The notes under the pieces were generated by a model that saw only the letters and a list, made by a program, of their open reading frames with translations, was not told the DNA's origin and did no database searches. A program made the translations under genes and the position numbers. Below, in pieces: positions 7,847 to 61,372 of a stretch of 64,000 bases of DNA. This DNA is from an uncultured virus (IMG/VR IMGVR_UViG_3300027229_000184) (Duplodnaviria; Heunggongvirae; Uroviricota; Caudoviricetes). Numbering within the stretch: position 1 is the first letter of the stretch; each line of letters begins with the position of its first letter. Where the stretch lies: IMG/VR virus record IMGVR_UViG_3300027229_000184, one strand, 5' to 3'.

Positions 7847-8860
7847 ATGAAGATCCTCGTTTACGTAGGTTATCAAAACACTAACATAACTCCTCAGCGA
7901 ATTGAAAGCTGCGATGGGGTTGGCGGTACTGAGATTGCAGCTCTAAAATTGGCTGAGGGCCTTGCGAAGAGGGGTCACGCGGTTTGTTTTGGTGGACAAG
8001 TAGAAAGTACATTCCACAATGGAGTTACGTGGCTTAACATTGATCAGTGCCATCAACAACATTTTGATCTGTTGATCGCTGCATCATACCTCCACTATTT
8101 AAAAGAGTTTAACAATTTCGATAAGTCACTATTCTGGTTCCATAACACAGATTGGTTTCCTTGGTGGAGAGGCGAGGCTGTGATTGATTCCTCATGGTTA
8201 GAAGATCCTCGAATCAATGGATTCATTGCCCTAACTGAGTGGCACAAGCAGCAATTGATCAGAGATTACAGCCTGCAGAAACCAATCCACGTAATTGGTA
8301 ACGGTATTGATCGAAATGATTTTCCATCTTGGAAAGTTGAAAAGATTCCAAATTCATTCATCTATTCTTCTGCCCGTGAAAGAGGATTGTATGATCTTCT
8401 AAAGATGTGGCCTAGAATACATCAGAATCTCATTGGAGCAACCCTAAGAGTGTTCGGGCCCGGGTACGATATAGATAATAGCCCATTGCCACAATTAGAC
8501 GGTGTCACCTATATGGGCACTGTTGATCAAATGACTCTTCACAACTGGCAGATGAAATCAGAGTACTGGTTACACCCCACGCATTATGAAGAAACTTACG
8601 GCATCACTGCATTGGAAGCGCAATATTGCGGAGCCATACCTATTACAACCAATCTTGCCGCTCTGTCAGAAGTGGTGGGCAATCGAGGTTTTTTACTCGA
8701 AAGTGGTGAAACAGACACTGACATTCTAAATATAATCAAAGTACTTCACGGATCTCCAGAGGTTAAAGCTAAACTCAGACGTAGAGCTCACGAATGGGCA
8801 AAGCAGCAAACCTGGAACTTTCGAGTCGAACAATGGTTACACATCATAAACACAATATGA
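7847..8860 (+). CDS. Glycosyltransferase family 4 (GT-B)
   Basis: GGTEIA...IGNGID...YSS..ERGL...ETYGITALEAQYCGA.PITT. Confidence 0.9.
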   Translation: MKILVYVGYQNTNITPQRIESCDGVGGTEIAALKLAEGLAKRGHAVCFGGQVESTFHNGVTWLNIDQCHQQHFDLLIAASYLHYLKEFNNFDKSLFWFHNTDWFPWWRGEAVIDSSWLEDPRINGFIALTEWHKQQLIRDYSLQKPIHVIGNGIDRNDFPSWKVEKIPNSFIYSSARERGLYDLLKMWPRIHQNLIGATLRVFGPGYDIDNSPLPQLDGVTYMGTVDQMTLHNWQMKSEYWLHPTHYEETYGITALEAQYCGAIPITTNLAALSEVVGNRGFLLESGETDTDILNIIKVLHGSPEVKAKLRRRAHEWAKQQTWNFRVEQWLHIINTI

Positions 8861-19283: not shown

Positions 19284-20168
19284 ATGAAAGTATTAGTAAC
19301 AGGTGGTTCAGGTTTTGTGGGTTCAAACCTAATCAAGGCACTTTTAAAGAAGTATAAAGACATTCAGATTCAATCTGTAGACAACTATATGAGTGGATCT
19401 AAATCAAATGAAGTTAACGATTCTCGTGTAACATACTTTGATATTTCAACATATAGATTACTGAACGATAGAGAACGGCAGTATTGGTTAGATCAAAAGT
19501 TTGATGTGGTGTTTCACTTTGGTGAGTTTGCACGTATTGATGTATCTTTTGACCAACCTGAACAGGTGTGGGAATCTAACCTTGATGGAACCACTCAAAT
19601 CCTTGAACTGTGTCGTCACTGGGGAGCTAAGTTGATCTATTCAGCTTCAAGCTCAAAGTTTGGTCGTAACGGTTCACTTGAAAACCTTTCACCTTACGCT
19701 TGGTCAAAGGCTAAGATGGTCGAACTAATCAAGAACTACGCCGAATGGTACGGTCTTCGATACGAGATCTGTTACTTCTTTAACGTATACGGCAAGGGTC
19801 AAATCGAGAAAGGTCCTTACGCTACCGTCGTTGGAATCTTTGAACGACTTCGCCGTGAAGGTAAAGAACTAACTGTAACTGAACCCGGAACTCAAACTCG
19901 AGATTTCACCCACATTGATGACATCGTATCAGGTTTGATCGCAGCTTATGAAAACGGTAATCAAGGAGAATGGTTCCTTCGCAGAGGTCAACCTTACACG
20001 ATTGTTGAACTTGCACAGATGTTTGAATCTGACTGGAAGTTTATTCCTGAAAAAAGAGGTGAACGTAAGGAAGCGATTGAGATTCCGAACAATACAACCG
20101 AAACTTTAGGTTGGCAAGCAACACAAGATCTGAAACAATATATCCAAACTGAGGTATTAAATAAATGA
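19284..20168 (+). CDS. NAD-dependent epimerase/dehydratase
   Basis: VTGGSGFVGS, YAWSK, FNVYG, RDFTHIDD. Confidence 0.9.
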   Translation: MKVLVTGGSGFVGSNLIKALLKKYKDIQIQSVDNYMSGSKSNEVNDSRVTYFDISTYRLLNDRERQYWLDQKFDVVFHFGEFARIDVSFDQPEQVWESNLDGTTQILELCRHWGAKLIYSASSSKFGRNGSLENLSPYAWSKAKMVELIKNYAEWYGLRYEICYFFNVYGKGQIEKGPYATVVGIFERLRREGKELTVTEPGTQTRDFTHIDDIVSGLIAAYENGNQGEWFLRRGQPYTIVELAQMFESDWKFIPEKRGERKEAIEIPNNTTETLGWQATQDLKQYIQTEVLNK

Positions 20169-23217: not shown

Positions 23218-23562
23218 ATGAAACTAGAAGATCTTTTCACAACCGAATGGACTCCTCGAGTTAAAGAATACGCTGACAAGATGGTGCAGGGAGTTCGTCA
23301 CATTGATGAACATGTTCACCATGATGACGTATTGTTCAAAACACAAACCCATGAAGATATTTTTCATGATTTGGTTTGTGAAGCCGCGACCGATAATCTA
23401 GTCAATTACGGAGACCTACAATTAGATGCTGAAGCATTCGATGACATTACAATTAAGATTGACATCTATGAATCGTTACTTCGTCTTCGTCAAGACGGTG
23501 TGATAGATTGGATTGATGACGAGAACGGTGAAGAAATCATTTTCAAGAAGAATGAAGATTGA
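23218..23562 (+). CDS. Hypothetical protein
   Basis: Coupled ORF. Confidence 0.7.
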   Translation: MKLEDLFTTEWTPRVKEYADKMVQGVRHIDEHVHHDDVLFKTQTHEDIFHDLVCEAATDNLVNYGDLQLDAEAFDDITIKIDIYESLLRLRQDGVIDWIDDENGEEIIFKKNED

Positions 23563-24295
23563 TAACATTTACCTGATTACCTTAGATCATAGTCAACAGA
23601 GTTATGACTCGTTAATTGATCGTTTAAACAGGCTAGGGGTTCCCACAGGAACACCTTATAAAATTATTGAAGGAGTTAATGGTCGCCAGTTATTTAAGAC
23701 AGAGGAGGGTCGAAATGAATATGGAATCAAGTTCTATGATAATTGGGCTCAAGGCACTAACAACGAATGGTGGAATCGGCCAGTAACAACTGGTGAAGCC
23801 GGTGGAATCTGCTCCCACATTAAAATCTGGGAAGATGCATACCGAAATGGTTATGAAAACATCTTAATCATAGAAGATGACTTCAATCCAATCGAAACGA
23901 TAGATTGGAGCGTCTTTACTGAATTACAGAACTATGATTGGGATCTCATCTTCTTATCGAGATTGTTGGTTAATCATCCAATGGTCAAAGATTTCAACGT
24001 AGGTTTAACTAACTTTATTCGTCCAGGTTACTCATATCAAACACATTGTTATGTATTGAATAAATCTGGAATCAGCAAGCTGGTTGAAACCAATCTACAG
24101 ACGTTAAAGCAAAATATCATCGTATCAGACGAATTTTTGCCAGCAACGTATACTTGGCACCCACGACAAGATCTTCGCTCAATGTACAATCAAAACATGA
24201 GCGCGTTAGCATTAAAGTGGAATCCCGTAAGTCAGCTCCGGTTTGAAGCAGCTGGCAATTCTCAAACTCAGCCAGTAGAAGGCGTAGACTTTTAA
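23552..24295 (+). CDS. Glycosyltransferase family 25, COLGALT-like
   Basis: RPVTTGE.G...SH..IW, IIEDD, WDLIFLSR, YSY.T.CY, DEFLP...HP. Confidence 0.85.
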   Translation: MKIDNIYLITLDHSQQSYDSLIDRLNRLGVPTGTPYKIIEGVNGRQLFKTEEGRNEYGIKFYDNWAQGTNNEWWNRPVTTGEAGGICSHIKIWEDAYRNGYENILIIEDDFNPIETIDWSVFTELQNYDWDLIFLSRLLVNHPMVKDFNVGLTNFIRPGYSYQTHCYVLNKSGISKLVETNLQTLKQNIIVSDEFLPATYTWHPRQDLRSMYNQNMSALALKWNPVSQLRFEAAGNSQTQPVEGVDF

Positions 24296-24612: not shown

Positions 24613-24686
24613 GGTGAGTTGCTCGAGTGGCCTAAGGGAGCTGTTTGCAAAACAGACGTTCAGTGGTTCGAATCCACTACTCACCT
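24613..24686 (+). tRNA. tRNA-Cys(GCA)
   Basis: Cloverleaf; acceptor ggtgagt/actcacc, loop ttGCAaa, ggttcgaatcc, U discriminator. Confidence 0.9.
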
Positions 24687-24809
24687 CAATCGCAACCGTA
24701 AAAAAGTTTCGTAAAAGTTTTACCGGGTCAAGTTTTTGTTGTATATTAGCCCAGTAATCATCAGATAGTGGTTCAAATTTAACGGAGACAGTAAACCTTA
24801 ATTAAATTT

Positions 24810-25004
24810 ATGACTATGAAAACGATGATGACAAACGAAGAAACAGCTAAGCAAATGTTCGGCCACCTGGTTGATACTTGCGAAAGTTGCGAACAAAAGT
24901 TGGGAGTTTGGACTGAGAATCCTTTTGATGCAGATGTCCGTAACGAACACAACATGATGTTCCTTTGCAAAGAGTGCTTTCACGAATTGCAGATGGATGT
25001 CTGA
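24810..25004 (+). CDS. Small Cys-rich (zinc-binding) protein
   Basis: CESC...CKEC, after early promoter. Confidence 0.65.
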   Translation: MTMKTMMTNEETAKQMFGHLVDTCESCEQKLGVWTENPFDADVRNEHNMMFLCKECFHELQMDV

Positions 25005-25025
25005 GGTCTTTGACTTGGTGGTAAT

Positions 25026-25098
25026 GATTCTTTAGCTCAGTTGGTAGAGCAGTACACTTTTAATGTACGGGTCCCGGGTTCTAGCCCCGGAGGGATCA
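25026..25098 (+). tRNA. tRNA-Lys(TTT)
   Basis: gtaca-ctTTTaa-tgtac; T loop reads ttctag. Confidence 0.9.
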
Positions 25099-25102
25099 CA
25101 AT

Positions 25103-25184
25103 GGGAGTATCGCATAGTGGCTATTGCAGTTGACTGTAAATCAATCGTCTAACGACATCGGAGGTTCGAGTCCTTCTACTCCCA
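25103..25184 (+). tRNA. tRNA-Tyr(GTA)
   Basis: gttga-ctGTAaa-tcaat, long variable arm. Confidence 0.92.
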
Positions 25185-25187
25185 CAA

Positions 25188-25306
25188 GGAAGAGGCAGTG
25201 CAAGCTGTAATAGATGATGGTGTTAAAATGGTGAAAAAGGGTTTGGAGTAATCAGAGCGTAAACAAATCATCTATCAGAAACCCTGAAAGACCCAGAGCC
25301 TCTTCC
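25188..25306 (+). ncRNA. Unidentified structured RNA between tRNA-Tyr and tRNA-Phe
   Basis: ggaagaggc/gcctcttcc closing stem, atagatgat/atcatctat inner stem, agggttt/aaaccct potential pseudoknot. Confidence 0.6.
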
Positions 25307-25310
25307 CCAT

Positions 25311-25383
25311 GGACTCGTAGCTCAGTTGGTAGAGCAATGGACTGAAAATCCATGTGTCGGCAGTTCGATTCTGCCCGAGTCCA
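25311..25383 (+). tRNA. tRNA-Phe(GAA)
   Basis: atgga-ctGAAaa-tccat. Confidence 0.93.
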
Positions 25384-25390
25384 CTAACAT

Positions 25391-25465
25391 TGCGGGTTGG
25401 ACTGGAGGTGGTTCCAGCCTGGTCTCATAAGCCAAACGACGTGGGTTCGACTCCCACACCCGCTA
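25391..25465 (+). tRNA. tRNA-Met(CAT), initiator-like (1:72 mismatch)
   Basis: tgcgggt/acccgct acceptor, ctCATaa loop. Confidence 0.85.
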
Positions 25466-25540
25466 CTAAGATCTAACCCAATGTAAACAATATGTTAATA
25501 CTGATATATAAGTTAATAACATTAAAATAACATTGGGACT

Positions 25541-25744
25541 ATGAAACATCTTAAGAACTTTTTAGTGATGATTTTTTCAACACTATCTATCGCGTCAATT
25601 TCATTGGCAACACTAATGTTATCTACTTCATGCTCTTCTAATCATGATTTAGTTGACACTTCAACGTGGGCTTCTAAACAAACATGTCAGTTTGATCCAC
25701 ATTGTACAATTACATCTATTCACAGCCACGTTAGCTTTGAATAA
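25541..25744 (+). CDS. Small putative lipoprotein
   Basis: Signal peptide ending LSTSC; Cys/His-rich C-terminus. Confidence 0.6.
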   Translation: MKHLKNFLVMIFSTLSIASISLATLMLSTSCSSNHDLVDTSTWASKQTCQFDPHCTITSIHSHVSFE

Positions 25745-25747
25745 ATA

Positions 25748-25976
25748 ATTAACACTGATCCATCGCTCGAAAGAGAGGAAACTCGGGACATCACTGCTTA
25801 AGGTGGAAGGTTATAACCTTTCCAAAACTAGTAAAAAAACAGAGTTTTGGAAAGGTTATAACCGTTATACCACCGAGGATGCAACACGTAATAGTCCATA
25901 GGGGTGAGCAGCCTGGGCAAGGTAGTGGCTTAGATTAATGGTGGAATAAAACAGAATCCCGGTTACTAGTGTTAAT
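25748..25976 (+). ncRNA. rnpB: Minimal RNase P RNA (type A catalytic domain, reduced S domain)
   Basis: CR-I gaggaaactcggga, CR-V aacagaatcccggtta (P4); P1, P2, P3, P5, P6, P7, P15, P16 pairings; CR-IV-like tagattaatg. Confidence 0.85.
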
Positions 25977-25982
25977 GTAAAT

Positions 25983-26060
25983 GGTGGTTGTAGCTCAGTT
26001 GGTTAGAGCGCTTGATTGTGGTTCAAGAGGTCGTCGGTTCGATTCCGATCAGTCACCCCA
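25983..26060 (+). tRNA. tRNA-His(GTG) with G-1 and encoded CCA
   Basis: cttga-ttGTGgt-tcaag. Confidence 0.93.
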
Positions 26061-26118
26061 GATATATAAATTGCGTATCAACAAGCCGATCGCAACGGCT
26101 TTTACGCGGTCCCCCGTC

Positions 26119-26146
26119 AAACCCGGTCTTTTTGACCGGGTTTTTT
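26119..26146 (+). terminator. Rho-independent terminator
   Basis: aaacccggtc-tttt-gaccgggtttttt. Confidence 0.85.
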
Positions 26147-26211
26147 CATCTCGATGAAGTTTTACCGTCTTAAATGTGATATATACAGAAACAAAAAACA
26201 TTTAAGTTAAA

Positions 26212-27970: not shown

Positions 27971-28029
27971 ATTATCAAATGAAACAACCCTTAGATCTAG
28001 TATATAAATACTGTTCTTCGGAATAACCA

Positions 28030-35202: not shown

Positions 35203-36513
35203 ATGATCAAAGTAGGGTTACCCTCTGCACTTATTTATGGTTGGGATCGAGTTGGTGAGCATCGTTTATTGACATCACTCTATCATGAAGAAAACCTTCA
35301 GGAGAATGTTCTGTGTTATTCGTATCCAGACTCTTCTTCATTTGCTGAGGATTTTGCTCGCCATCGACCTGATGTTATTGTTACCATCGGCGGTAATCGA
35401 CAGGATTGGACACAACTTGTGTCTCGCATCAATGAAACTTTTATCACCACTAAGTGGTGTCATTATAGTCAACTACCTGTTGATTTTCAACTTGCAAACG
35501 ATATTGTTTCACATGCAACTAATTGGGCTTGCTTTTCATTAGACAAGGTTTTTGATGATCCAAATCGACCTTATTTTTCAGTTTTCACAGGTGCTTATAA
35601 GACGGGAGATAGATTGTATCGAACTTACGAAGGTATTAAAAATCAAACCTATCCCAATTGGGAATGGATCGTAATTGATGATTCTCCAGAAGATCACACT
35701 GAAACATGGACCATTCTACAAGAATTGGCCAAAAAAGACTATCGAGTTAGACCTTATAAGATAACTCCAATTTCTGGCGGTAATATCGGTGAAGTTAAAA
35801 ATAGAGCATGTTCAATGGCCAATGGAAACTGGTTCGCTGAACTAGATCATGATGACTTTTTCTTACCAGAATTGTTTGCTGAAACCATAAAGGCCATCAA
35901 TCAATATCCTGACGCTGGTTTTGTCTACACTGACGTCGCAGAACCATTTGAAGACGGTGAAATGAGAAAGTACACTAGCACCATTGGACCTGAAGAGTAT
36001 TGGTATGCACACCCTGAAAACGGATTTGTATGGGGATATGGTGGTCACGAATGGGTTGAATGGAATGGTACTGAATACCTGTGTCACTCATATCCTGACA
36101 TCAATCCCAGAACTATTCGATTCAACATTGGTATGCCAAACCATGCTCGAATCTGGCGTAAAGACGTGTACAATAAAATTGGAAAGCATAATCGATTCAT
36201 TTCTGTGGCTGATGATTTTGAGTTAATCATTAGAACGTTTCTAGAAACAAAAATGATTCACATCAAGAAAATGTTGTACTTACAGTACAATAATCGTAAC
36301 TCAACGGTTGATAACAATGCAACTGACATTAATAGAAAATCACGTTTGATTCGAGACCATTATAACCAACAGATTCACAATCGAATCGAACAACTCGGCT
36401 GTGTAGATTGGGATTGGAACGAAGAAACCAAAACTTCAACTCTATTTCAAATCGTCACGCCTAATCAAAAGTATTTTGAAGAAGAACAAAAGCTTAATTA
36501 CATTTACAAATGA
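35203..36513 (+). CDS. Glycosyltransferase family 2
   Basis: QTYPNWEWIVIDDS, ELDHDD, ADDFEL. Confidence 0.9.
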   Translation: MIKVGLPSALIYGWDRVGEHRLLTSLYHEENLQENVLCYSYPDSSSFAEDFARHRPDVIVTIGGNRQDWTQLVSRINETFITTKWCHYSQLPVDFQLANDIVSHATNWACFSLDKVFDDPNRPYFSVFTGAYKTGDRLYRTYEGIKNQTYPNWEWIVIDDSPEDHTETWTILQELAKKDYRVRPYKITPISGGNIGEVKNRACSMANGNWFAELDHDDFFLPELFAETIKAINQYPDAGFVYTDVAEPFEDGEMRKYTSTIGPEEYWYAHPENGFVWGYGGHEWVEWNGTEYLCHSYPDINPRTIRFNIGMPNHARIWRKDVYNKIGKHNRFISVADDFELIIRTFLETKMIHIKKMLYLQYNNRNSTVDNNATDINRKSRLIRDHYNQQIHNRIEQLGCVDWDWNEETKTSTLFQIVTPNQKYFEEEQKLNYIYK

Positions 36514-38186
36514 ATAACATAGTAATGGGAATCTCGATTGGTCACAATCGAGGAGCTGCAATCACAATCAACGGAGATCTTAAAGTTGCAATCAGCAATG
36601 AAAGAGTTACTCGCATTAAAACTGATCATTCCGATAGTTTACCACTAGAATCAATGAGATATTGTCTAGAGGCATTAAACCTGGAGTATAAAGACATAGA
36701 TGCGTTTATCTATAACACCACCGAAGACATCAATAGGGCTCCAGAAGAGTTTGAGATTGAAACCGGTATGTCAAGAGACAGATTAAACTTTGTTCCTCAC
36801 CATCTGGCTCATGCCTATTCAACTTTCTGTGCTTCTGACTTTGATGAGGCTGCAGTTGTAGTTGCAGACGCAATGGGATCAGTTTATAATGACGAAACCC
36901 CAATTAAAGATTGGTTTAAGGTCGATGAATCAGGGTTGAATCCAGGAGAACATTTAGCAGAAGGTTACTCAATTTATCATTTTTCAAGAAAAGATCAAAC
37001 CATCAATCAATCATATTGTAAGTGGGTGGTTTATCCTTTTAGAGAAGGAGATCCTGAAGCTGAAACATCAATTGGTCATAAATATGGAATGGGTTCAAAG
37101 CAACTTGTATATAACCCCGTTCACAATACGTGGCAAGCTGGAAAGTTAATGGGGCTTGCATCTTATGCTAATAAGGAGTGGGTTGATTCCCACCCGATTC
37201 AAACGAGATTTGAAGATGAAGATATGTACGTTATGGTGCAGACCTTTTATCCCGAAGTAACATGGCAATCAAACTTTCAACAAAAGGCTAACGTTGCAGG
37301 CCTCTATCAGCGTGAACAGGAATTGTCGTCCCTTCACCTTGCAAAGATGGCAAAGAAAATAACCAATTCAAATAACATTTGTGTAGCTGGCGGATCTTTC
37401 TTAAATTGTAACACTAATGAGCTTATTATTAGAGAAGGTATTTACGATAATGCATACTTCATGCCTCCTGCTGATGACAGTGGTATTCCCATCGGCTGTG
37501 CATATTACGGTTCGCATGTATTGATGGGTAAAATTCCAACTTCTGAAGGATGGATGACAGCGTATCTTGGAAAAACATATACTGAACAAGAAATCAATGA
37601 TGCAATTGACCTTTATTCTTCTTCAATTAATGTAATAAAACTTGAAGAAGATGAAATGGTAGATACTGTTGCTAATTTATTGAATGAAAATAGAGTCATC
37701 GGATGGTTTCAGAAGGGTTCCGAAATGGGTCCACGTGCTCTAGGTTGTCGTTCAATCTTGGCCTCACCAAAACAGGCTTGGATGCCACAGTACATTAATA
37801 GTGAAATCAAACTCAGGGAATGGTATCGCCCATTTGCGCCTTCGGTGCTATATGAAAAACAGGCCGAAATCTTCGAACTTGATACGTATTCTCCATACAT
37901 GCTGGTTACCACTGAAGTTAAACCAGAATGGAGAAGCAAGATTCCAGCAGTTACTCACATTGACGGAACTGCCCGCTATCAATCAGTTACACCAGATAAC
38001 AATCCAAAATATCACAAGCTAATCAGTAAATTCAATGAAGTGTCAGGCGTTCCAGTCGTGTTGAACACTTCATTCAATGGACCTGAAGAACCTATCGTTG
38101 AAACTCCTACCAATGCAATAAATACGTTCCTAAAAAGAAACTTATACGCATTGGTGCTTAATAATTATCTAATTACTCGAAAATGA
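36510..38186 (+). CDS. Carbamoyltransferase (NodU/CmcH family)
   Basis: ERVTRIK, HHLAHA, GKLMGLA, GPRALG.RS, RPFAP, LNTSFN. Confidence 0.93.
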   Translation: MNNIVMGISIGHNRGAAITINGDLKVAISNERVTRIKTDHSDSLPLESMRYCLEALNLEYKDIDAFIYNTTEDINRAPEEFEIETGMSRDRLNFVPHHLAHAYSTFCASDFDEAAVVVADAMGSVYNDETPIKDWFKVDESGLNPGEHLAEGYSIYHFSRKDQTINQSYCKWVVYPFREGDPEAETSIGHKYGMGSKQLVYNPVHNTWQAGKLMGLASYANKEWVDSHPIQTRFEDEDMYVMVQTFYPEVTWQSNFQQKANVAGLYQREQELSSLHLAKMAKKITNSNNICVAGGSFLNCNTNELIIREGIYDNAYFMPPADDSGIPIGCAYYGSHVLMGKIPTSEGWMTAYLGKTYTEQEINDAIDLYSSSINVIKLEEDEMVDTVANLLNENRVIGWFQKGSEMGPRALGCRSILASPKQAWMPQYINSEIKLREWYRPFAPSVLYEKQAEIFELDTYSPYMLVTTEVKPEWRSKIPAVTHIDGTARYQSVTPDNNPKYHKLISKFNEVSGVPVVLNTSFNGPEEPIVETPTNAINTFLKRNLYALVLNNYLITRK

Positions 38187-49036: not shown

Positions 49037-49255
49037 ATGCAACTTACACTTGAACGTCTTAATGGTGAATATCTTTCATGGGCTGTTGAATTCGGTGAGG
49101 GTAGAAACAACAATGACATTCGATTCGGTCAAATGATTCATAACAAGTATGATCTACCCGGTAAGGTTGACGTATTCTATATTGAAGGAACTGAAAGAGC
49201 TTATACAAGTCTTCTAGCTTACGTTGAAGAAGACAAAATTCAGAACACATTATGA
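49037..49255 (+). CDS. Hypothetical protein
   Basis: RFGQ motif ORF after promoter. Confidence 0.65.
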   Translation: MQLTLERLNGEYLSWAVEFGEGRNNNDIRFGQMIHNKYDLPGKVDVFYIEGTERAYTSLLAYVEEDKIQNTL

Positions 49256-50187
49256 GAGATCAATACGCATTACAAACAAATCAAAAACAAATGGGATATA
49301 CCAAAACACCAGTAGGTATCATTGGCCAAGGCTTTGTTGGCACGGCCGTTCGAGTTGGATTAGATAATGAATTCAATGTCATGACATACGATAAGTATGA
49401 GACAAATAAAACAACTCACCAACCTGCTGAAATTCTTCGCAAGTGTGAGGTTGTATTTGTTTGCGTTCCAACTCCGATGGATCTTGAAACCGGTGAATGT
49501 CACACTGGAATCGTTGAATCAGTGGTTGCAGAACTAGATGCGCTTGCAACTCTTCTCCATGATGCAGGTGAATTGAACCACCCAATCACTTTAGTGGTAA
49601 AATCAACCGTACCTCCGGGTACAACAAAATTCTTGAACGATCATCGTTCAGAGTACGTTAACGTAACATTTAATCCTGAGTTCTTGACTGAAGCTAACGC
49701 TATTCAAGATTTTATGAATCAGGATCGAATCATCCTTGGTGGCGAGCCGGCAGCCCTCGAACCAGTGGTTGACGTATTTCAAACAGCATTTCCAGGCGTG
49801 CCAATTCAAACGACCGATTCAACTACAGCTGAAATGGTCAAATACACCACCAACACCTTTCTATCGGTCAAGGTCAGTTTTGCAAACGAGATCTATGATC
49901 TATGTAAAGCCAGTCACGTTGACTACAGTAAAATGATTGAACTAGCTAAACTTGACAAGCGTCTTGGAGGTTCACATTGGATGGTTCCAGGTCCTGACGG
50001 TGACCGTGGCTTCGGAGGCCATTGTTTCCCTAAGGACCTTACCGCCCTTCGATATGTAGCATCACAATTTGAAGTTCAAACGCCTGTTCTTGACGGTGCA
50101 AATGAAACAAACAACCGAGTTCGTGCTAATAGAGACTGGGAAGAGCAAGAAGGTCGTGCGGTGATAAATAAATTACAAGTTAAATGA
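49252..50187 (+). CDS. ugd: UDP-glucose/GDP-mannose dehydrogenase
   Basis: GQGFVG, CVPTP, KSTVPPG, NPEFL, GFGGHCFPKD. Confidence 0.92.
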   Translation: MRDQYALQTNQKQMGYTKTPVGIIGQGFVGTAVRVGLDNEFNVMTYDKYETNKTTHQPAEILRKCEVVFVCVPTPMDLETGECHTGIVESVVAELDALATLLHDAGELNHPITLVVKSTVPPGTTKFLNDHRSEYVNVTFNPEFLTEANAIQDFMNQDRIILGGEPAALEPVVDVFQTAFPGVPIQTTDSTTAEMVKYTTNTFLSVKVSFANEIYDLCKASHVDYSKMIELAKLDKRLGGSHWMVPGPDGDRGFGGHCFPKDLTALRYVASQFEVQTPVLDGANETNNRVRANRDWEEQEGRAVINKLQVK

Positions 50188-53490: not shown

Positions 53491-56400
53491 ATGCAAGTAG
53501 CGTTATGGATTGATACTCCTGCGCTGGGCGATACAATTGCAGCTATTCCAACGCTTCGTAAACTGTCACAGGTCTATAATCAGCCTGTGACAGTTTTTAC
53601 GAGCTTACCTTCAATCTTTGAAGGACATCCTTGCGTTAAGGAAGCGTTTCACTCAGATGCGGACAAATCAGATTACAAAGTTTATCGTACTTTTGCGCCT
53701 TTAGTTGGTGCAACTTATGACTTGAAAGGCGAGAAGGTTGAGTTTCGTCACTCAAACTCTGAAATTCGTCAGTTTCACGCAATGAGTTTAGGTTTCAATC
53801 TCACACCTGATGAGATGGAAACGGACTTGTACATTGAAGAGGAACTTGAATTACCTGTAAAAGATTACGTCATCATTCACCCTACTCACACTTGGGCCAC
53901 TAGAACCTGGGATCAGGCTAATTGGCAAGAGTTAGTGGACAGGTTGAATGATCGTGGTATTCCAGTGGTTGCCATTGGTCATGATTCAAAGGAAGTTGGG
54001 TTCTATAGCGTACAAAAGCCTGTAATGGACATTAACATCAAACATGGTGTTAATTTGCTAAACAATCCTATTACTACAATTCCAGCTTTACGTTGGATGA
54101 TGAATCACCGAGCTAAAGCAGTGGTAACAATGGATTCTGGCATTCTTCACATTGCTGGAACCACGGATGTTGAAATCATTCAACTAGGATCTTCAATCGA
54201 TCCAAAGCTAAGAGCACCTTATCGAAAGGGCTCACAAGATTACAAATACAAATACATTGCCGGTGGTTGTGGACTATTTTGTAGTTCAAACATGGCTTAT
54301 AATGTCAGAGTTCATGGCAGCCTCCACGGTGTACCTCCACAGATTCACTGTTTGGAAAATAAGCCAACTATGGAATGTCACCCAGGAGTGAATCCAGTGT
54401 TCGAGGCAGTATGTCAAAGATACGATGTTAGACCAAAGATCAGATTGGTTCATTTGCTTTTAAAGGATGATCATTCGCCTGAACGTCAACAAAGATCAAT
54501 CGATAGTATTTCTCAACTTGCAGATCGAGGTATTGAATACATTCAAATTTGGAATGAACGCTGGAAGGACGCTCCTCCTCGTGAAACCTTTGAGTACCCT
54601 GATCAGTTTGACAAGGTTCCCATCGGTCCAGGTCATTATGGCAATTATCGTGCATTCGTTGATTCTGGTTTAGAACATTTCACAGAAGACATAGATGCTT
54701 TAATCTTTGCCGAAGGAGATTCTTTCTTGACCAAACCAATCGACGAGGTCGTGGAAGATATTAATCGTGCTTATGAAGCTTGTGAATTACATAACATTTC
54801 ATATTTTTCATTCGGTTCACGCTATTCTCTGCATGATTTTAACGATCTAATTTCATCTACACGATATAAGATTGGAGATATTCACGTGGTAAATAAAGTT
54901 ATCGGAGCACAATTGGTAATGTTACACAATAGAGTTCAATACTATTGTTCAGACAGGTTTATTCATCAAAAGTGGACTGCAGCTGACATTTATCTAAACA
55001 ACATCATGATGGGCAAGTTCAACATTGGTATTTTTGACCAACCTGTTGCACTGCAAGCCGACGGTTTTTCTGCTATTGATTCTTATAACAAGATTCACGC
55101 CGATGAAAGATCTCGTAACTCTAAGAAAAGAATTCTATTCTTGGCCCCTCACCTTTCAACGGGTGGCATGCCAGAATTCCTATTGGGTCGACTAAAGGCC
55201 CTGATTGACGAGCCTTCTGTTGAGCTTCATGTCGTCGAGTTCACATGTTACGCTACAACATACGTTGTTCAAAGGGACCAGATTCGCCAAATGTTAGGTG
55301 ATAGATTCCATGAAATTGGTCACCTAGGTTCAATGGAAGATTCAGAACGTGAAGAGCGTCTAAAGCAAATCATTAGTCAGATTCAACCTGACGTTATTCA
55401 CATCGAGGAAAGTCCAGAGGCCTTTGATGGTTTCAACAAAATGTCAGAAGAGTGCCAATCATGGATCTACCAGTCATCGCATCCTTGGAGGATTGTGGAA
55501 ACTTGTCACAACATTTGGTTCAATCCGAGAGAAAACAAACGCATCTCTCCTGATGCCTATTTGTTTGTCACTCCTCACCACACGCTTGAGACATTCTCCG
55601 AGGAACCATCCGAGAAGTTTGAAGCCTTCTATCCAATCATTCCTCAGACTAAGTCCGAGTTGCAAAGGAGAAAATCTTTGGAAATTTTAGAATTGGAGCA
55701 TTTATCCGATGCAAAACATCTAATCAATATCGGTCTCTGGACCCAAGGCAAAAACCAAGGAGAAGCCGTTGAATGGGCCCGCACCCTGGAACAGCAATAC
55801 CCCGGTCAATACCAGTTCCACTTCATAGGCAACCAGGCTGAAAACTTCGAAAGCTACTGGGGCCCCATCATGCAGGACTTGCCTCCGAACGTCCACATCC
55901 ACGGCGAGCGTAACGACATCAACACATTCTACCAACTGGCAGATGGAGTGGTCTTTAACTCTACCTGGGAGTGTAACCCCTTGGCCCTTCGTCAGGCCCT
56001 AGGCTACCCAATCCCAGTGATGGCTCGTAACCTGCCGCAGTACCACTCAATGTATACAGGGCAGCTCACAGAAATCCAAGGAGACACCACCGATCCCCTC
56101 CGATTGGTTGAAGCCTTAAAATCTCCAATTCATAGAAAACAAAACGACCAAGCCATGGCTAAATTCAAGCAAGAACACTTACAAGCTTACATGAAAACCC
56201 TTAAAGGCCCAGTGATCAGAACCGCTCAAATCAGAGATGGGTACACAATCCAGTGGAACAACGGCCCAACTGTCCGATCAAAGGCCGGCCGCCCACTTGA
56301 TGTAGAATTTTGGGCTGATGGTGAATTGGTATACAAAAGTACCTTACAAGCTGAGGGCTATTGGTGCAGGCCGGCCGACGAATGGTTCCGAGATTGGACC

Positions 56401-57348
56401 GTTAAGATTGACGGCAAGGAGCACAAGATGGAACTCGAAGACAAAGTGGCTCACATTCAATTTAATTCAGGTTCTCTAGGAGACACTCTAAGTTGGGTTG
56501 AAGCAGCGGTTGAATTTAAGTTCAAACATGGCCTTAGCAAGTTGTACCTTAGTACCCACAAGAACTGGCTGTTTGACCAGGACCACTACCACCTACGAGG
56601 TGTCGAGTTTATCGCTCCAGGCGATTCACCCGAAGACACGTACGCTCGATGGGAGGTTGGAGTTTACATGGAAGATCCTCCAGGAACTCCATGGTTCCCT
56701 AATAGGAATAAAAGAGATTGGCGTAAGATCTACTTAGGTGACATCGCAACTGATCACTTGGGCCTACCATCGATTAGAAAAGCTCCTAAACTACAATACA
56801 CTAGCAAGCACCAACAAGATCGGCCCTACATTTGTATCGCTACACAATCGACCGCACAAGCCAAATACTGGAACAATCCTACCGGTTGGCAAGACCTGAT
56901 TGACCACTATACGGCTAAAGGTTACGATGTGTATCATGTATCTAAAGAGGGTAACAACGATTTGAAAGGTTTCATTCAAGGACCTGAAGACATGGGCGAA
57001 ACTTTTGCCCTCATCAATGGTGCTGAAGTGTTCTACGGAATTTCTTCTGGCCTATCTTGGTTGGCATGGTGTACTGAAACCCCAGTAGTGATGATCTCTG
57101 GCTTCACACCTGAGGAGTGCGAGTTCATGGACGATAAGACCCTTCGTATCATTAACAAAGATGTGTGTAACTCTTGCTGGGCTTGGGACCACTTTAACCG
57201 TGGAGACTGGAACTGGTGTCCAACTGGTAAGGGCAATGAACGCCACTTTGAGTGTACAAAAACCATTTCTGCATCGTCAGTAATTGAACAAGTTAACAAT
57301 TGGAATTATGGAAAAAGTATCGTTACAGAAGAAAGTACACACATCTGA
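53491..57348 (+). CDS. Multidomain glycosyltransferase: GT9-like + GT-A-like + GT4 + autotransporter O-heptosyltransferase (AAH/TibC-like)
   Basis: ALGDTIA..P...DSGILHIA; HLSTGGMP; SLGDTLSW, STAQAKYWN, SSGLSWLAW, ISGF, CNSCW...WCP...FEC. Confidence 0.85.
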   Translation: MQVALWIDTPALGDTIAAIPTLRKLSQVYNQPVTVFTSLPSIFEGHPCVKEAFHSDADKSDYKVYRTFAPLVGATYDLKGEKVEFRHSNSEIRQFHAMSLGFNLTPDEMETDLYIEEELELPVKDYVIIHPTHTWATRTWDQANWQELVDRLNDRGIPVVAIGHDSKEVGFYSVQKPVMDINIKHGVNLLNNPITTIPALRWMMNHRAKAVVTMDSGILHIAGTTDVEIIQLGSSIDPKLRAPYRKGSQDYKYKYIAGGCGLFCSSNMAYNVRVHGSLHGVPPQIHCLENKPTMECHPGVNPVFEAVCQRYDVRPKIRLVHLLLKDDHSPERQQRSIDSISQLADRGIEYIQIWNERWKDAPPRETFEYPDQFDKVPIGPGHYGNYRAFVDSGLEHFTEDIDALIFAEGDSFLTKPIDEVVEDINRAYEACELHNISYFSFGSRYSLHDFNDLISSTRYKIGDIHVVNKVIGAQLVMLHNRVQYYCSDRFIHQKWTAADIYLNNIMMGKFNIGIFDQPVALQADGFSAIDSYNKIHADERSRNSKKRILFLAPHLSTGGMPEFLLGRLKALIDEPSVELHVVEFTCYATTYVVQRDQIRQMLGDRFHEIGHLGSMEDSEREERLKQIISQIQPDVIHIEESPEAFDGFNKMSEECQSWIYQSSHPWRIVETCHNIWFNPRENKRISPDAYLFVTPHHTLETFSEEPSEKFEAFYPIIPQTKSELQRRKSLEILELEHLSDAKHLINIGLWTQGKNQGEAVEWARTLEQQYPGQYQFHFIGNQAENFESYWGPIMQDLPPNVHIHGERNDINTFYQLADGVVFNSTWECNPLALRQALGYPIPVMARNLPQYHSMYTGQLTEIQGDTTDPLRLVEALKSPIHRKQNDQAMAKFKQEHLQAYMKTLKGPVIRTAQIRDGYTIQWNNGPTVRSKAGRPLDVEFWADGELVYKSTLQAEGYWCRPADEWFRDWTVKIDGKEHKMELEDKVAHIQFNSGSLGDTLSWVEAAVEFKFKHGLSKLYLSTHKNWLFDQDHYHLRGVEFIAPGDSPEDTYARWEVGVYMEDPPGTPWFPNRNKRDWRKIYLGDIATDHLGLPSIRKAPKLQYTSKHQQDRPYICIATQSTAQAKYWNNPTGWQDLIDHYTAKGYDVYHVSKEGNNDLKGFIQGPEDMGETFALINGAEVFYGISSGLSWLAWCTETPVVMISGFTPEECEFMDDKTLRIINKDVCNSCWAWDHFNRGDWNWCPTGKGNERHFECTKTISASSVIEQVNNWNYGKSIVTEESTHI

Positions 57349-59521: not shown

Positions 59522-61372
59522 ATGTGTGGAATCGTAGGATACATTGGTAAGGACCTCGTAGGACCTGGCGTAGTTATTAAAGGTCTTCAAAGACTAGAAT
59601 ATAGAGGATATGATTCTGCGGGTATTGCAATTAAAGACGGATTAGGTATCAGAGTTCACCGTTCAGTCGGTGGTGTCGATAATCTATATGAAGCCATCCC
59701 CGAAGATCAAAGTTGGGAAGTAGATTGTGCAATTGGTCACACTCGATGGGCAACCCATGGTGAACCGGCTGTTAGAAATGCACACCCACACACTTCAATG
59801 CAGGGTAAAGTAACCCTAGTTCACAACGGTATCATTGAAAACTATGAGACCCTAAAGAAAAAGCTGATTCAAGAGGGCTTTACGTTCCAATCTGATACCG
59901 ATACTGAGGTTTTAGCCAACTGGATTGAGTACATTTGGACTACATCTACTTGCGATTTTGCAAATGCAGTACGTTTTGCATTACAAGATGTTGTTGGTGC
60001 TTATGCGATCTTAGTTATTAGTGTTGATTCAACTGACATGGTAATGGCTCGAAAGTCATCTCCCCTTGCAATTGGCATCGGAGAAGGCGAATTTATCATC
60101 GCGTCTGATGCTACACCAATTGTAGAGTACACTAAGGACATAATTTACCTTAATGATGAGCAAATTGCAGTCGTCGAAGACAAAAAGACACTTCGAATCA
60201 TCAATTTGGACGCTTCGGAAGTAGATCCAGTGATCGAAAAGGTAGAATTAGAGCTTGATACGATCGAAAAGGGTGGTTATGACTCATTCATGTTAAAAGA
60301 GATCTACGAACAGCCAGATTCAGTGTGGAATTGTCTTCGTGGACGTTTGACAGAAGGTGAAGAACCCTTGATGATGGGTGGAGTTGAAAATGTGCTGCCT
60401 CAATTGCTTCGAGCTAACAAAATCTTCATCATTGCATGCGGAACTTCATGGCATGCAGGTCTAATTGGTAAAAATATGATTGAAAAGCTGACTCGAATCC
60501 CAGTTGAGGTTGATTATGCGTCAGAATTCAGGTACAAAGACCCAATTATTCGTCCAGGTGATGTAGTAATCTCAATTTCTCAGTCTGGTGAGACCGCAGA
60601 TACAAAGGCGGCGATGGAAATGGCTCGTGAAAGAGGTGCCACTCTATTTGGAATCGTTAATGTTGTAGGTTCTTCTATTTCTCGATTGGCTGATGCAGGC
60701 ATTTACACACACTCTGGAATTGAAATTGGAGTAGCTTCGACTAAAGCATTTACTGGTCAAGTTGCAGCTCTTTCTCTGCTGGCGATCAAAATGGCTCGTC
60801 AATTGAATTCAATCACCGATAATGATTACATTAAGCTAAAATTAGCCCTCAAGCACATCCCAGGCAAGATTAGAACGATCCTGGATGACACGAATCACAT
60901 ATTTGAAGTAGCAAATAAGTACGCAATTGATGAATACCAGGACTTTCTATACCTCGCCAGAGGCATTAACTTCCCGGTTGCTTTGGAAGGCTCTTTGAAG
61001 CTAAAAGAGATCTCATACATTCACGCTGAAGGTTATCCAGCTGGTGAAATGAAACATGGACCAATTGCATTAATTGACGAACAGTGTCCATCGGTTTTTA
61101 TCGTTCCAAATGATTCATCATACGGTAAAGTGGTGTCAAACATGCAAGAGGTTAAAGCTCGTAAAGGTAAAGTTATCGCAATTGTGACAAAAGGAGATGA
61201 GTTGATTCGAGGGATCGCTGACGATGTCATTGAGATACCTGAGACAGAAGAATTGCTAACTCCTTTATTGACAGTTATTCCACTACAGTTGCTCTCCTAT
61301 CAGATTGCGGTGCAACGTGGATGCAATGTTGATAAGCCAAGAAATTTGGCAAAATCTGTCACCGTAGAGTAA
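59522..61372 (+). CDS. glmS: Glutamine-fructose-6-phosphate aminotransferase
   Basis: MCGIVG, EYRGYDSAG, GHTRWATHG, SQSGET, PRNLAKSVTVE. Confidence 0.97.
   Translation: MCGIVGYIGKDLVGPGVVIKGLQRLEYRGYDSAGIAIKDGLGIRVHRSVGGVDNLYEAIPEDQSWEVDCAIGHTRWATHGEPAVRNAHPHTSMQGKVTLVHNGIIENYETLKKKLIQEGFTFQSDTDTEVLANWIEYIWTTSTCDFANAVRFALQDVVGAYAILVISVDSTDMVMARKSSPLAIGIGEGEFIIASDATPIVEYTKDIIYLNDEQIAVVEDKKTLRIINLDASEVDPVIEKVELELDTIEKGGYDSFMLKEIYEQPDSVWNCLRGRLTEGEEPLMMGGVENVLPQLLRANKIFIIACGTSWHAGLIGKNMIEKLTRIPVEVDYASEFRYKDPIIRPGDVVISISQSGETADTKAAMEMARERGATLFGIVNVVGSSISRLADAGIYTHSGIEIGVASTKAFTGQVAALSLLAIKMARQLNSITDNDYIKLKLALKHIPGKIRTILDDTNHIFEVANKYAIDEYQDFLYLARGINFPVALEGSLKLKEISYIHAEGYPAGEMKHGPIALIDEQCPSVFIVPNDSSYGKVVSNMQEVKARKGKVIAIVTKGDELIRGIADDVIEIPETEELLTPLLTVIPLQLLSYQIAVQRGCNVDKPRNLAKSVTVE

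Follow-up and report, generated by a model that had tools for sequence, protein, structure and literature searches.

A specificity-domain-less homologue of bacterial type A RNase P RNA in the tRNA array of an uncultured marine phage

Results

Genes and features at the locus

The DNA analysed here, a stretch of 64,000 nucleotides referred to as the window, corresponds to bases 95664-159663 of a 170,561-base IMG/VR virus record that is estimated to be 70% complete. The whole record has a GC content of 39.8%, encodes 166 of its 195 ORFs of at least 100 aa on one strand, and carries 18 tRNA genes. The record is a virus contig whose PHROG matches comprise, among others, a virion structural protein, a long-tail-fibre hinge connector and numerous genes of sugar metabolism. 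Fourteen marine-metagenome-labelled DNA runs contained 86-92% of the sampled words from a 4-kb stretch around the RNA described below. The source is an uncultured marine phage with an RNase P RNA gene among its own tRNA genes.

At Rfam gathering thresholds, the 64-kb window yielded 11 tRNAs and nothing else. Genes for tRNA-Cys, Lys, Tyr, Phe and Met, found by Rfam and ARAGORN, occupy 24613-25466 on the + strand, followed on that strand by a 67-aa ORF (25541-25744, from the ORF list) without a PHROG match. The reduced RNase P RNA gene, 229 nt from the first to the last base of P1, lies at 25748-25976 (+), on the evidence of the Rfam model RF00010, our own model R1 and covariation. Six nucleotides after the end of P1 begins tRNA-His(GTG) at 25983-26060 (+), with a genome-encoded G-1 at 25983, C73 and CCA (ARAGORN, 25984-26060; Rfam tRNA, 65.7 bits; sequence). 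The unit ends with an intrinsic-terminator-like hairpin and T run at 26119-26143 (+; 10 pairs, 6 of them G-C, T tail). Further same-strand tRNAs (Pro, Ile, Gln, Asn) follow about 2 kb past the RNA. A scan of the whole record with R1 returned a single copy of the reduced RNA, and a search for relatives of the downstream 568-aa ORF found none.

The surroundings of the RNA differ among its relatives. In relative X15, position 25384 is joined to 25757, such that tRNA-Phe is followed by 7 letters and then by the RNA (the shorter side of this joint covers only 30 letters); the 67-aa ORF and tRNA-Met are missing at that place. In relative X16, 968 extra letters stand between 25744 and 25748, and homology restarts exactly at the first base of P1.

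Several other features of the region were observed. The N-terminus of the 67-aa ORF is hydrophobic and followed by Cys, and looks lipoprotein-like by eye. The tRNA with anticodon CAT at 25391-25466 (+) scored 34.5 bits on the Rfam tRNA model, compared with 50-74 bits for the other ten in the window, and is possibly an atypical tRNA of the initiator, elongator or Ile2 type. For a phage, the window is unusually rich in sugar-modification genes (7847-8860, 19284-20168, 23513-24295, 36510-38186, 49252-50187, 53491-57348 and 59522-61372, all +), comprising glycosyl- and glucosyltransferases, a nucleotide-sugar epimerase, a Nol-like carbamoyltransferase, a UDP-glucose dehydrogenase, a glutamine amidotransferase/GFAT-like protein and a 1285-aa protein with a glycosyltransferase domain.

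The RNA matches the catalytic domain of bacterial type A RNase P RNA

We searched 734 nt around the RNA (25467-26200) with Rfam at an E-value threshold. Positions 1-367 of RF00010 (RNaseP_bact_a), the full model, aligned to 25747-25981 with 46.2 bits (E = 4.6e-13), and the same match in the whole 170.6-kb record reached E = 2.6e-14. An RNase P RNA at 25748-25976, as a sequence-only reading of this DNA had claimed, was thereby borne out, and the covariance search with RF00010 that the reading had named as its check returned a match to the C domain. The RNA is not listed at the gathering score of 100 bits, because about 110 model positions of the specificity (S) domain are absent. In the alignment, CR-I, J5/15-P15-P16-P17, CR-IV and CR-V match well, while the positions of P8-P14 and P18 are deleted. 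Within clan CL00002 the best match of the window was RF00010 rather than an archaeal (type T/archaeal) model. R1 gave 225.7 bits over exactly 25748-25976, a match by construction since the window is one of the R1 seeds. The fold of the RNA had a z-score of -5.79, and 0 of 200 shuffles were as stable, with a large share of this stability coming from one long hairpin.

All structural elements lie on the + strand. Read from the sequence, P1 has 9 bp (25748-25756/25968-25976), P2 has 7 bp including 2 G-U (25759-25765/25939-25945), and P3 has 3 bp closed by a GAAA loop (25766-25768/25773-25775). CR-I with the 5' strand of P4 spans 25775-25789 and is invariant in 18 homologues; P4 itself pairs 25780-25782 and 25784-25787 with 25958-25964 around the bulged T25783, as in type A RNAs. 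P5 (25789-25792/25878-25881) and P7 (25802-25806/25870-25874) were likewise read from the sequence, and the 5' strand of P6 pairs with the P17 loop as a pseudoknot (25794-25800/25905-25911). The segment 25882-25929, which aligned to the P15-P17 part of RF00010, holds J5/15 (GCAA), P15 (25885-25887/25925-25927), P16 (25894-25898/25914-25918), P17 and the GGT of L15 (25921-25923). The segment 25931-25965 holds CR-IV (25931-25940), the 3' strand of P2, J2/4, and CR-V (25951-25965) with the 3' strand of P4; its columns are invariant, and a pattern made from it retrieved 14 viral loci. The CR-I, CR-IV and CR-V blocks, P15 with L15 GGU and the P6 pseudoknot to the P16/P17 loop are all type A features.

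Every element named in the sequence-only reading (P1-P7, P15, P16, CR-I, CR-IV, CR-V, L15 GGU and the bulged U) could thus be located, as could its length of about 229 nt and its position 6 nt before tRNA-His (G-1 at 25983). The reading was also right that P18/P19 are missing: only 3 nt lie between P15 and CR-IV, and nothing there resembles P18. None of P8-P14 is present in the RNA.

A lineage-specific hairpin stands in place of the S domain

The stub that replaces the S domain comprises the 63 nt between the P7 strands (25807-25869, +), namely AA, a perfect 21-bp hairpin and GTTATA. The stem pairs 25809-25829 with 25843-25863 around a 13-nt loop, and the predicted fold, including P7, has an energy of -37.8 kcal/mol. 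No S-domain element was recognisable in these 63 nt, with no equivalent of CR-II, CR-III or P10-P12. An S domain of about 63 nt, mostly lacking, had been proposed earlier; the length holds, but no S-domain homology is left in it, only the one 21-bp hairpin.

In contigs of runs X17 and X18, 25809 is joined to 25869 by 12 other letters that form a 2-bp stem with a GAAA loop, and very close relatives therefore lack the long hairpin entirely. In contig X16 the hairpin carries two compensatory changes, 25817/25855 and 25825/25847 each changing together. Across the subfamily of the window, the insert at this position ranges from 16 nt (L016, an RNA of 185 nt) to 102 nt (L012). Two further ideas about the stub were rejected: a repeated mobile element, since no other copy of the hairpin was found in the genome, and a stub structure common to five family members, since P7 alone is common to them and the inserts are not alignable. 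Together, the lack of an S-domain equivalent, the inserts without shared structure and the 12-nt replacement point to a C-domain-only RNA with a variable expansion segment. The 21-bp hairpin is, as far as these comparisons go, such a lineage-specific and dispensable segment and not a reader of the substrate.

Reduced RNase P RNAs form a family in viral contigs

Two pattern scans of viral contigs turned up about 20 different reduced RNase P RNAs, which are 185-277 nt long and for the most part lie in phage tRNA arrays. The CR-IV/CR-V pattern retrieved 14 stretches, and the CR-I/P6 pattern retrieved 18, of which 4 were on contigs already matched. At an E-value threshold, Rfam placed reduced RNase P RNAs in most stretches (28-118 bits, 189-281 nt), and also gave three full-size RNAs on short contigs and one 325-nt form (L005, with L014 at the same score and coordinates). 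L008, L024/L033 and L025/L030 had no Rfam match at the thresholds used, yet are clear homologues, and L002 and L019 scored slightly higher on RF00373 (32-34 bits).

We built the covariance model R1 from six close members, with nested helices only. It matched 20 of the 24 sources searched, the non-seed members scoring 32-153 bits; the window shows the family traits of a full-length match, a C-domain-only architecture and a virus contig. The four sources without a match at E<=1 were L004, L006 and L010, which are full-size RNase P RNAs (275-328 bits) on contigs of 3.7-32 kb, and L009, a 113-bit match with its 5' end cut off. Duplicates were left out of the alignments (L014, equal to L005; L026/L032, equal to L017; L029, equal to L020; L030, equal to L025), and where two stretches came from the same contig (L018/L002, L022/L008, L028/L012, L031/L015) the former of each pair was set aside. 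The contigs carrying family members range from 14.6 kb to 436 kb, and the GC of the RNA ranges from 0.33 to 0.61 across copies. The sequence-only reading had suggested looking for homologues in huge phages, and such a search succeeded, with about 20 reduced RNAs in viral contigs of up to 436 kb.

The family is not claimed to be virus-only. Among GTDB species genomes, the CR-I/P6 pattern retrieved 8 contigs, all from MAGs, and all 8 carried the reduced form (R1, 71-231 bits), in 7 cases with tRNAs beside it. Five of these MAGs were checked: two had a full-size RNase P RNA above the cut-off elsewhere, so the small form is an extra copy there, and in the other three, of unstated completeness, the small form alone was found. 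The MAG contigs may be prophages or mis-binned phage DNA. BLAST against 50,697 GenBank phage records gave tRNA matches only with an 801-nt query, tRNA-sized matches only with a 12-kb query, and two chance matches (E = 3) with the RNA alone; there is therefore no cultured relative detectable by BLAST in that set.

Some members depart from the common form. L020, L021, L023, L025 and L027, on viral contigs of 56-436 kb, make up a GC-richer branch with no tRNA within 600 nt; in them, P15 and CR-IV are separated by one or two additional hairpins, P18/P19-like and in some cases with GNRA loops, and the R1 alignment of their P15-P17 region is poor. L002 (590-788, -) has an intact core with 5' strands of P1 and P2 that are not convincing by eye; this copy might be decaying, or its 5' end might be rearranged. 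L005 (327-651, +) and likewise L014 carry the 325-nt RNA, which scored 209 bits, above the Rfam cut-off, and lies between tRNA-Cys and tRNA-Gly on viral contigs of 100-155 kb. This less reduced phage form suggests a graded series of S-domain loss.

Compensatory changes indicate selection on the structure

Covariation was counted in a 20-sequence alignment with P4 and P6 entered as pseudoknots. Pairing was found in 95.0% of 914 cells, compared with 30.8-41.7% when the partners were slid by 1-3 columns, and both-sided changes occurred in 36 of 52 pairs. None of 500 shuffles reached any of the observed measures. The nested helices were fitted by R1 and are thus biased towards pairing; P4 and P6 provide the cleaner test because they are absent from the aligning model. 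Pairing in P4 reached 99.3%, and two of its positions covary (GC:10/CG:9/UG:1 and AU:11/GC:5/CG:3/other:1); L023 has an A-C mismatch in this helix. P6 was 94-100% paired with two pairs changed on both sides, and P15 was 92.9% paired with all 3 of its 3 pairs covarying. The invariant nucleotides are those of the catalytic core (GAGGAAA, the bulged T, AGAT-AATG and ACAGAATCC), and the G-G of the L15 GGT is near-invariant across homologues.

Close relatives gave the same picture. Among the best-supported differences, contig X16 has 10 substitutions within the RNA, 4 of them outside the hairpin: two change G-U to A-U (25917, 25941), one changes A-U to G-U (25968), and one, at 25888 in the single-stranded J15/16, changes towards the family consensus. 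These four are structure-neutral.

These results demonstrate homology, a reduced architecture, selection on structure, and a phage and tRNA-array context. The covariance-model match, the roughly 20 reduced viral homologues and the compensatory changes in all core helices, including P4, together support the identity of the RNA as a homologue of bacterial type A RNase P RNA that is carried by a phage and has no S domain.

The RNA lies next to tRNA genes and may be transcribed with them

A tRNA begins no more than 11 nt downstream of the RNA in 10 of 19 loci (window, L002, L003, L005, L013, L015, L016, L017, L019, L024), the adjoining types being Arg (three), His and Lys (two each), and Thr, Gly and Trp (one each). 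Some tRNA lies within 600 nt in 13 of the 19 loci; the 6 loci with none are all on larger virus contigs of 88-436 kb.

No convincing sigma-70-like site was found directly upstream of the RNA. A promoter had been proposed at GAATAAATA, a claim that is not supported because this motif contains the stop codon of the 67-aa ORF, is not enriched (5 in the genome vs 3.1 expected) and is replaced by different upstream sequence in relatives; the promoter reading itself is neither supported nor excluded. The + strand of the record holds 7 copies of another motif, TATAAATA, against 13 expected, and the - strand holds none. One copy, at window 28003-28010 (+), precedes the tRNA-Pro/Ile/Gln/Asn cluster by about 20 nt and may be a promoter of the T4 late type, which it resembles.

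Contigs from three metatranscriptome runs in three studies span the RNA of close relatives. Contigs from RNA libraries may be DNA, and we interpreted only the parts covered, not contig depth as an expression level; the presence in three RNA libraries is compatible with transcription and is not proof of it. On the simplest reading of the arrangement, the RNA would be transcribed together with the tRNAs and freed by the enzymes that process them.

The phage tRNAs themselves have T at -1 in 14 of 18 cases, the base preferred by bacterial RNase P. Only 3 of the 18 (Thr, Ala, His) encode CCA, so that most primary transcripts cannot make the L15 contact, and a search of the 70%-complete record for a CCA-adding enzyme (PF01743) found none. 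When a tRNA-His combines G-1, C73 and CCA, as this one does, bacterial RNase P cleaves so that the extra G stays on.

Discussion

A probable ribozyme dependent on a host protein

We consider it probable that the RNA is an active, S-domain-less RNase P RNA that would be co-transcribed with the phage tRNAs, partner with host RnpA and remove the 5' leaders of pre-tRNAs. Its transcription, protein partner, catalysis and benefit to the phage are what we infer from homology and context. The RNA would be made from the + strand within the phage tRNA transcript, and its 3' end would be set by the RNase P cut 5' of the adjoining tRNA-His. Its fold would comprise P1-P7, P15-P17 and the pseudoknots P4 and P6, and host RnpA would most likely be bound through the retained CR-IV/CR-V region. 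The RNA would then remove the 5' leaders of phage (and host) pre-tRNAs; it would recognise the acceptor stem and the leader, as well as the 3' CCA of those substrates that have one, and would not read the T-loop/D-loop elbow. The benefit may be extra or host-independent capacity for tRNA 5' maturation during infection.

A search for rnpA (PF00825) was negative both for this record (~70% complete) and for 5 other RPR-bearing virus records (191-436 kb, 44-85% complete), and we therefore assume supply by the host. This absence fits the use of host RnpA without proving it, and host RnpA is the likely partner.

In passages of a 2024 review by Kirsebom and co-authors (PMC11143913), catalysis and recognition of the acceptor end are linked to U69, which is the bulged U of P4, and to the GGU that contacts RCCA. 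Measured against those passages, the phage RNA keeps all of these elements and has lost the T-stem-loop binding site. The same passages report that type A and type B C domains without an S domain cleave pre-tRNA with and without protein, at lower affinity, and that deletion of P18 from the E. coli RNA lowered kobs more than 3000-fold (PMC11143913). By analogy, the phage RNA should be active and is probably protein-dependent. Counting against this explanation are the absent P18, a P3 of only 3 bp and the score of 46.2 against the cut-off of 100.

Other explanations for the RNA

One alternative, which we regard as unlikely, is a catalytically weak or inert decoy that titrates host RnpA, or another RNase P-binding factor, and so re-routes or throttles host tRNA maturation. 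The protein-binding part is indeed retained while the elements that give substrate affinity (S domain, P18) have gone, the search for a phage rnpA was negative, and an inactive camelpox RNase P-like RNA has been discussed as a possible decoy in the passages of PMC3001073 that treat it. A decoy would need no intact active site, however, and the bulged U, the P4 geometry, the A-A of J5/15, the L15 GGU and P6 are invariant or covarying; moreover, RNase P is required for the phage's own tRNAs, of which 14 of 18 carry the preferred U(-1).

It is also doubtful, to a similar degree, that the RNA is an active ribozyme with changed substrates, acting mainly on non-tRNA or non-canonical targets such as hairpin-like sites within phage polycistronic RNAs or host RNAs and leaving ordinary tRNAs to the host enzyme. 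Pre-4.5S RNA and similar substrates need no intact S domain, according to the relevant passages of PMC11143913, and the 6 of 19 loci without a tRNA within 600 nt would suit such a role. Yet 10 of 19 copies stand directly before a tRNA, the window tRNAs score as ordinary (50-74 bits) save the one at 34.5, and no candidate alternative substrate was identified.

Less probable again is a structured spacer without catalysis: an rnpB fragment, once captured, would be kept only because its stable fold organises the tRNA polycistron or protects it, for instance by marking where processing occurs. Although the RNA is embedded between tRNAs with spacers of 0-11 nt and its long hairpin is stable, the hairpin is dispensable in relatives, and invariance is concentrated in the catalytic nucleotides of CR-I, CR-IV and CR-V while the helices vary freely, which would be unexpected for a spacer. 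A functionless, decaying remnant of a host rnpB taken up by the phage, for which the sub-threshold Rfam score and the large deletions might speak, is very improbable and already disfavoured, since about 20 diverged copies (GC 0.33 to 0.61) keep 95% pairing via compensatory changes and the substitutions of close relatives are structure-neutral.

Relation to known RNase P RNAs

The active, host-RnpA-dependent ribozyme that we favour would have several counterparts in part. With bacterial type A RNase P RNA (rnpB/M1 RNA; RF00010) the phage RNA shares P1-P7, P15-P17, the P4 and P6 pseudoknots, CR-I/CR-IV/CR-V, the bulged U and the L15 GGU. It differs from type A in having no P8-P14 (CR-II and CR-III are absent), no P18 and a 3-bp P3, in its 229 nt against a 367-position model, and in being virus-encoded inside a tRNA array. 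A natural RNA with a nearly absent S domain is the type T RNase P RNA of Pyrobaculum, reportedly described by Lai et al. in 2010. That RNA is an archaeal, cellular gene product working with archaeal proteins, whereas the phage RNA matches the bacterial type A model best and has a bacterial-style P15/L15 GGU and P6.

Engineered C-domain-only bacterial RNase P RNAs, as treated in passages of PMC11143913, are alike in having a catalytic domain without an S domain. They are laboratory deletions, usually with P18, whereas the phage RNA belongs to a natural, selected and diversified gene family. A virus-encoded RNA with a proposed resemblance to RNase P RNA is that of camelpox (Orthopoxvirus), for which passages of PMC3001073 report some secondary-structure similarity and no pre-tRNA cleavage in vitro. 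Compared with what those passages describe, the phage RNA has a significant covariance-model match and covariation in the catalytic core. Mycobacterium austroafricanum and M. sp. YC-RL4 carry extra RPR homologues with altered S domains, which flank an endonuclease gene and are thought to be horizontally acquired (passages of PMC9569102), and CPR bacteria have diverged RPRs without P12/P13/P14/P18 or without P15 (passages of PMC8172020). Both come from cellular genomes and, in those passages, are neither described as phage genes nor cut down to the C domain. We found no description of a phage-encoded RNase P RNA in the full-text literature, with most subscription journals outside that search; the 'phage' passages seen in the 2024 review (PMC11143913) concern phage-encoded and T4 tRNAs only.

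Implications

For the family as a whole, we lean towards a diversified set of natural C-domain-only, bacterial-type RNase P ribozymes, encoded by large tailed phages of marine, soil and other habitats, that would use host RnpA, serve the 5' maturation of the phages' own tRNAs and recognise no elbow. The site of the lost S domain would be free for expansion, with inserts of 16-102 nt in this subfamily and the 21-bp hairpin in this phage. RNase P RNA is one of two universal ribozymes, and a design with a catalytic and a specificity domain is the bacterial norm; to our knowledge, C-domain-only forms are known mainly as laboratory constructs. If this reading is true, these would be the first functional viral RNase P RNAs, the S domain would be dispensable in vivo in some setting, and tRNA 5' processing would join the translation-related functions carried by large phages. 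Structural studies and engineering would gain about 20 or more minimal scaffolds of natural origin, and the family offers a directly testable case of a virus-encoded ribozyme dependent on a host protein. A virus-borne, natural C-domain-only type A RNA is of relevance to both the RNase P and the phage fields.
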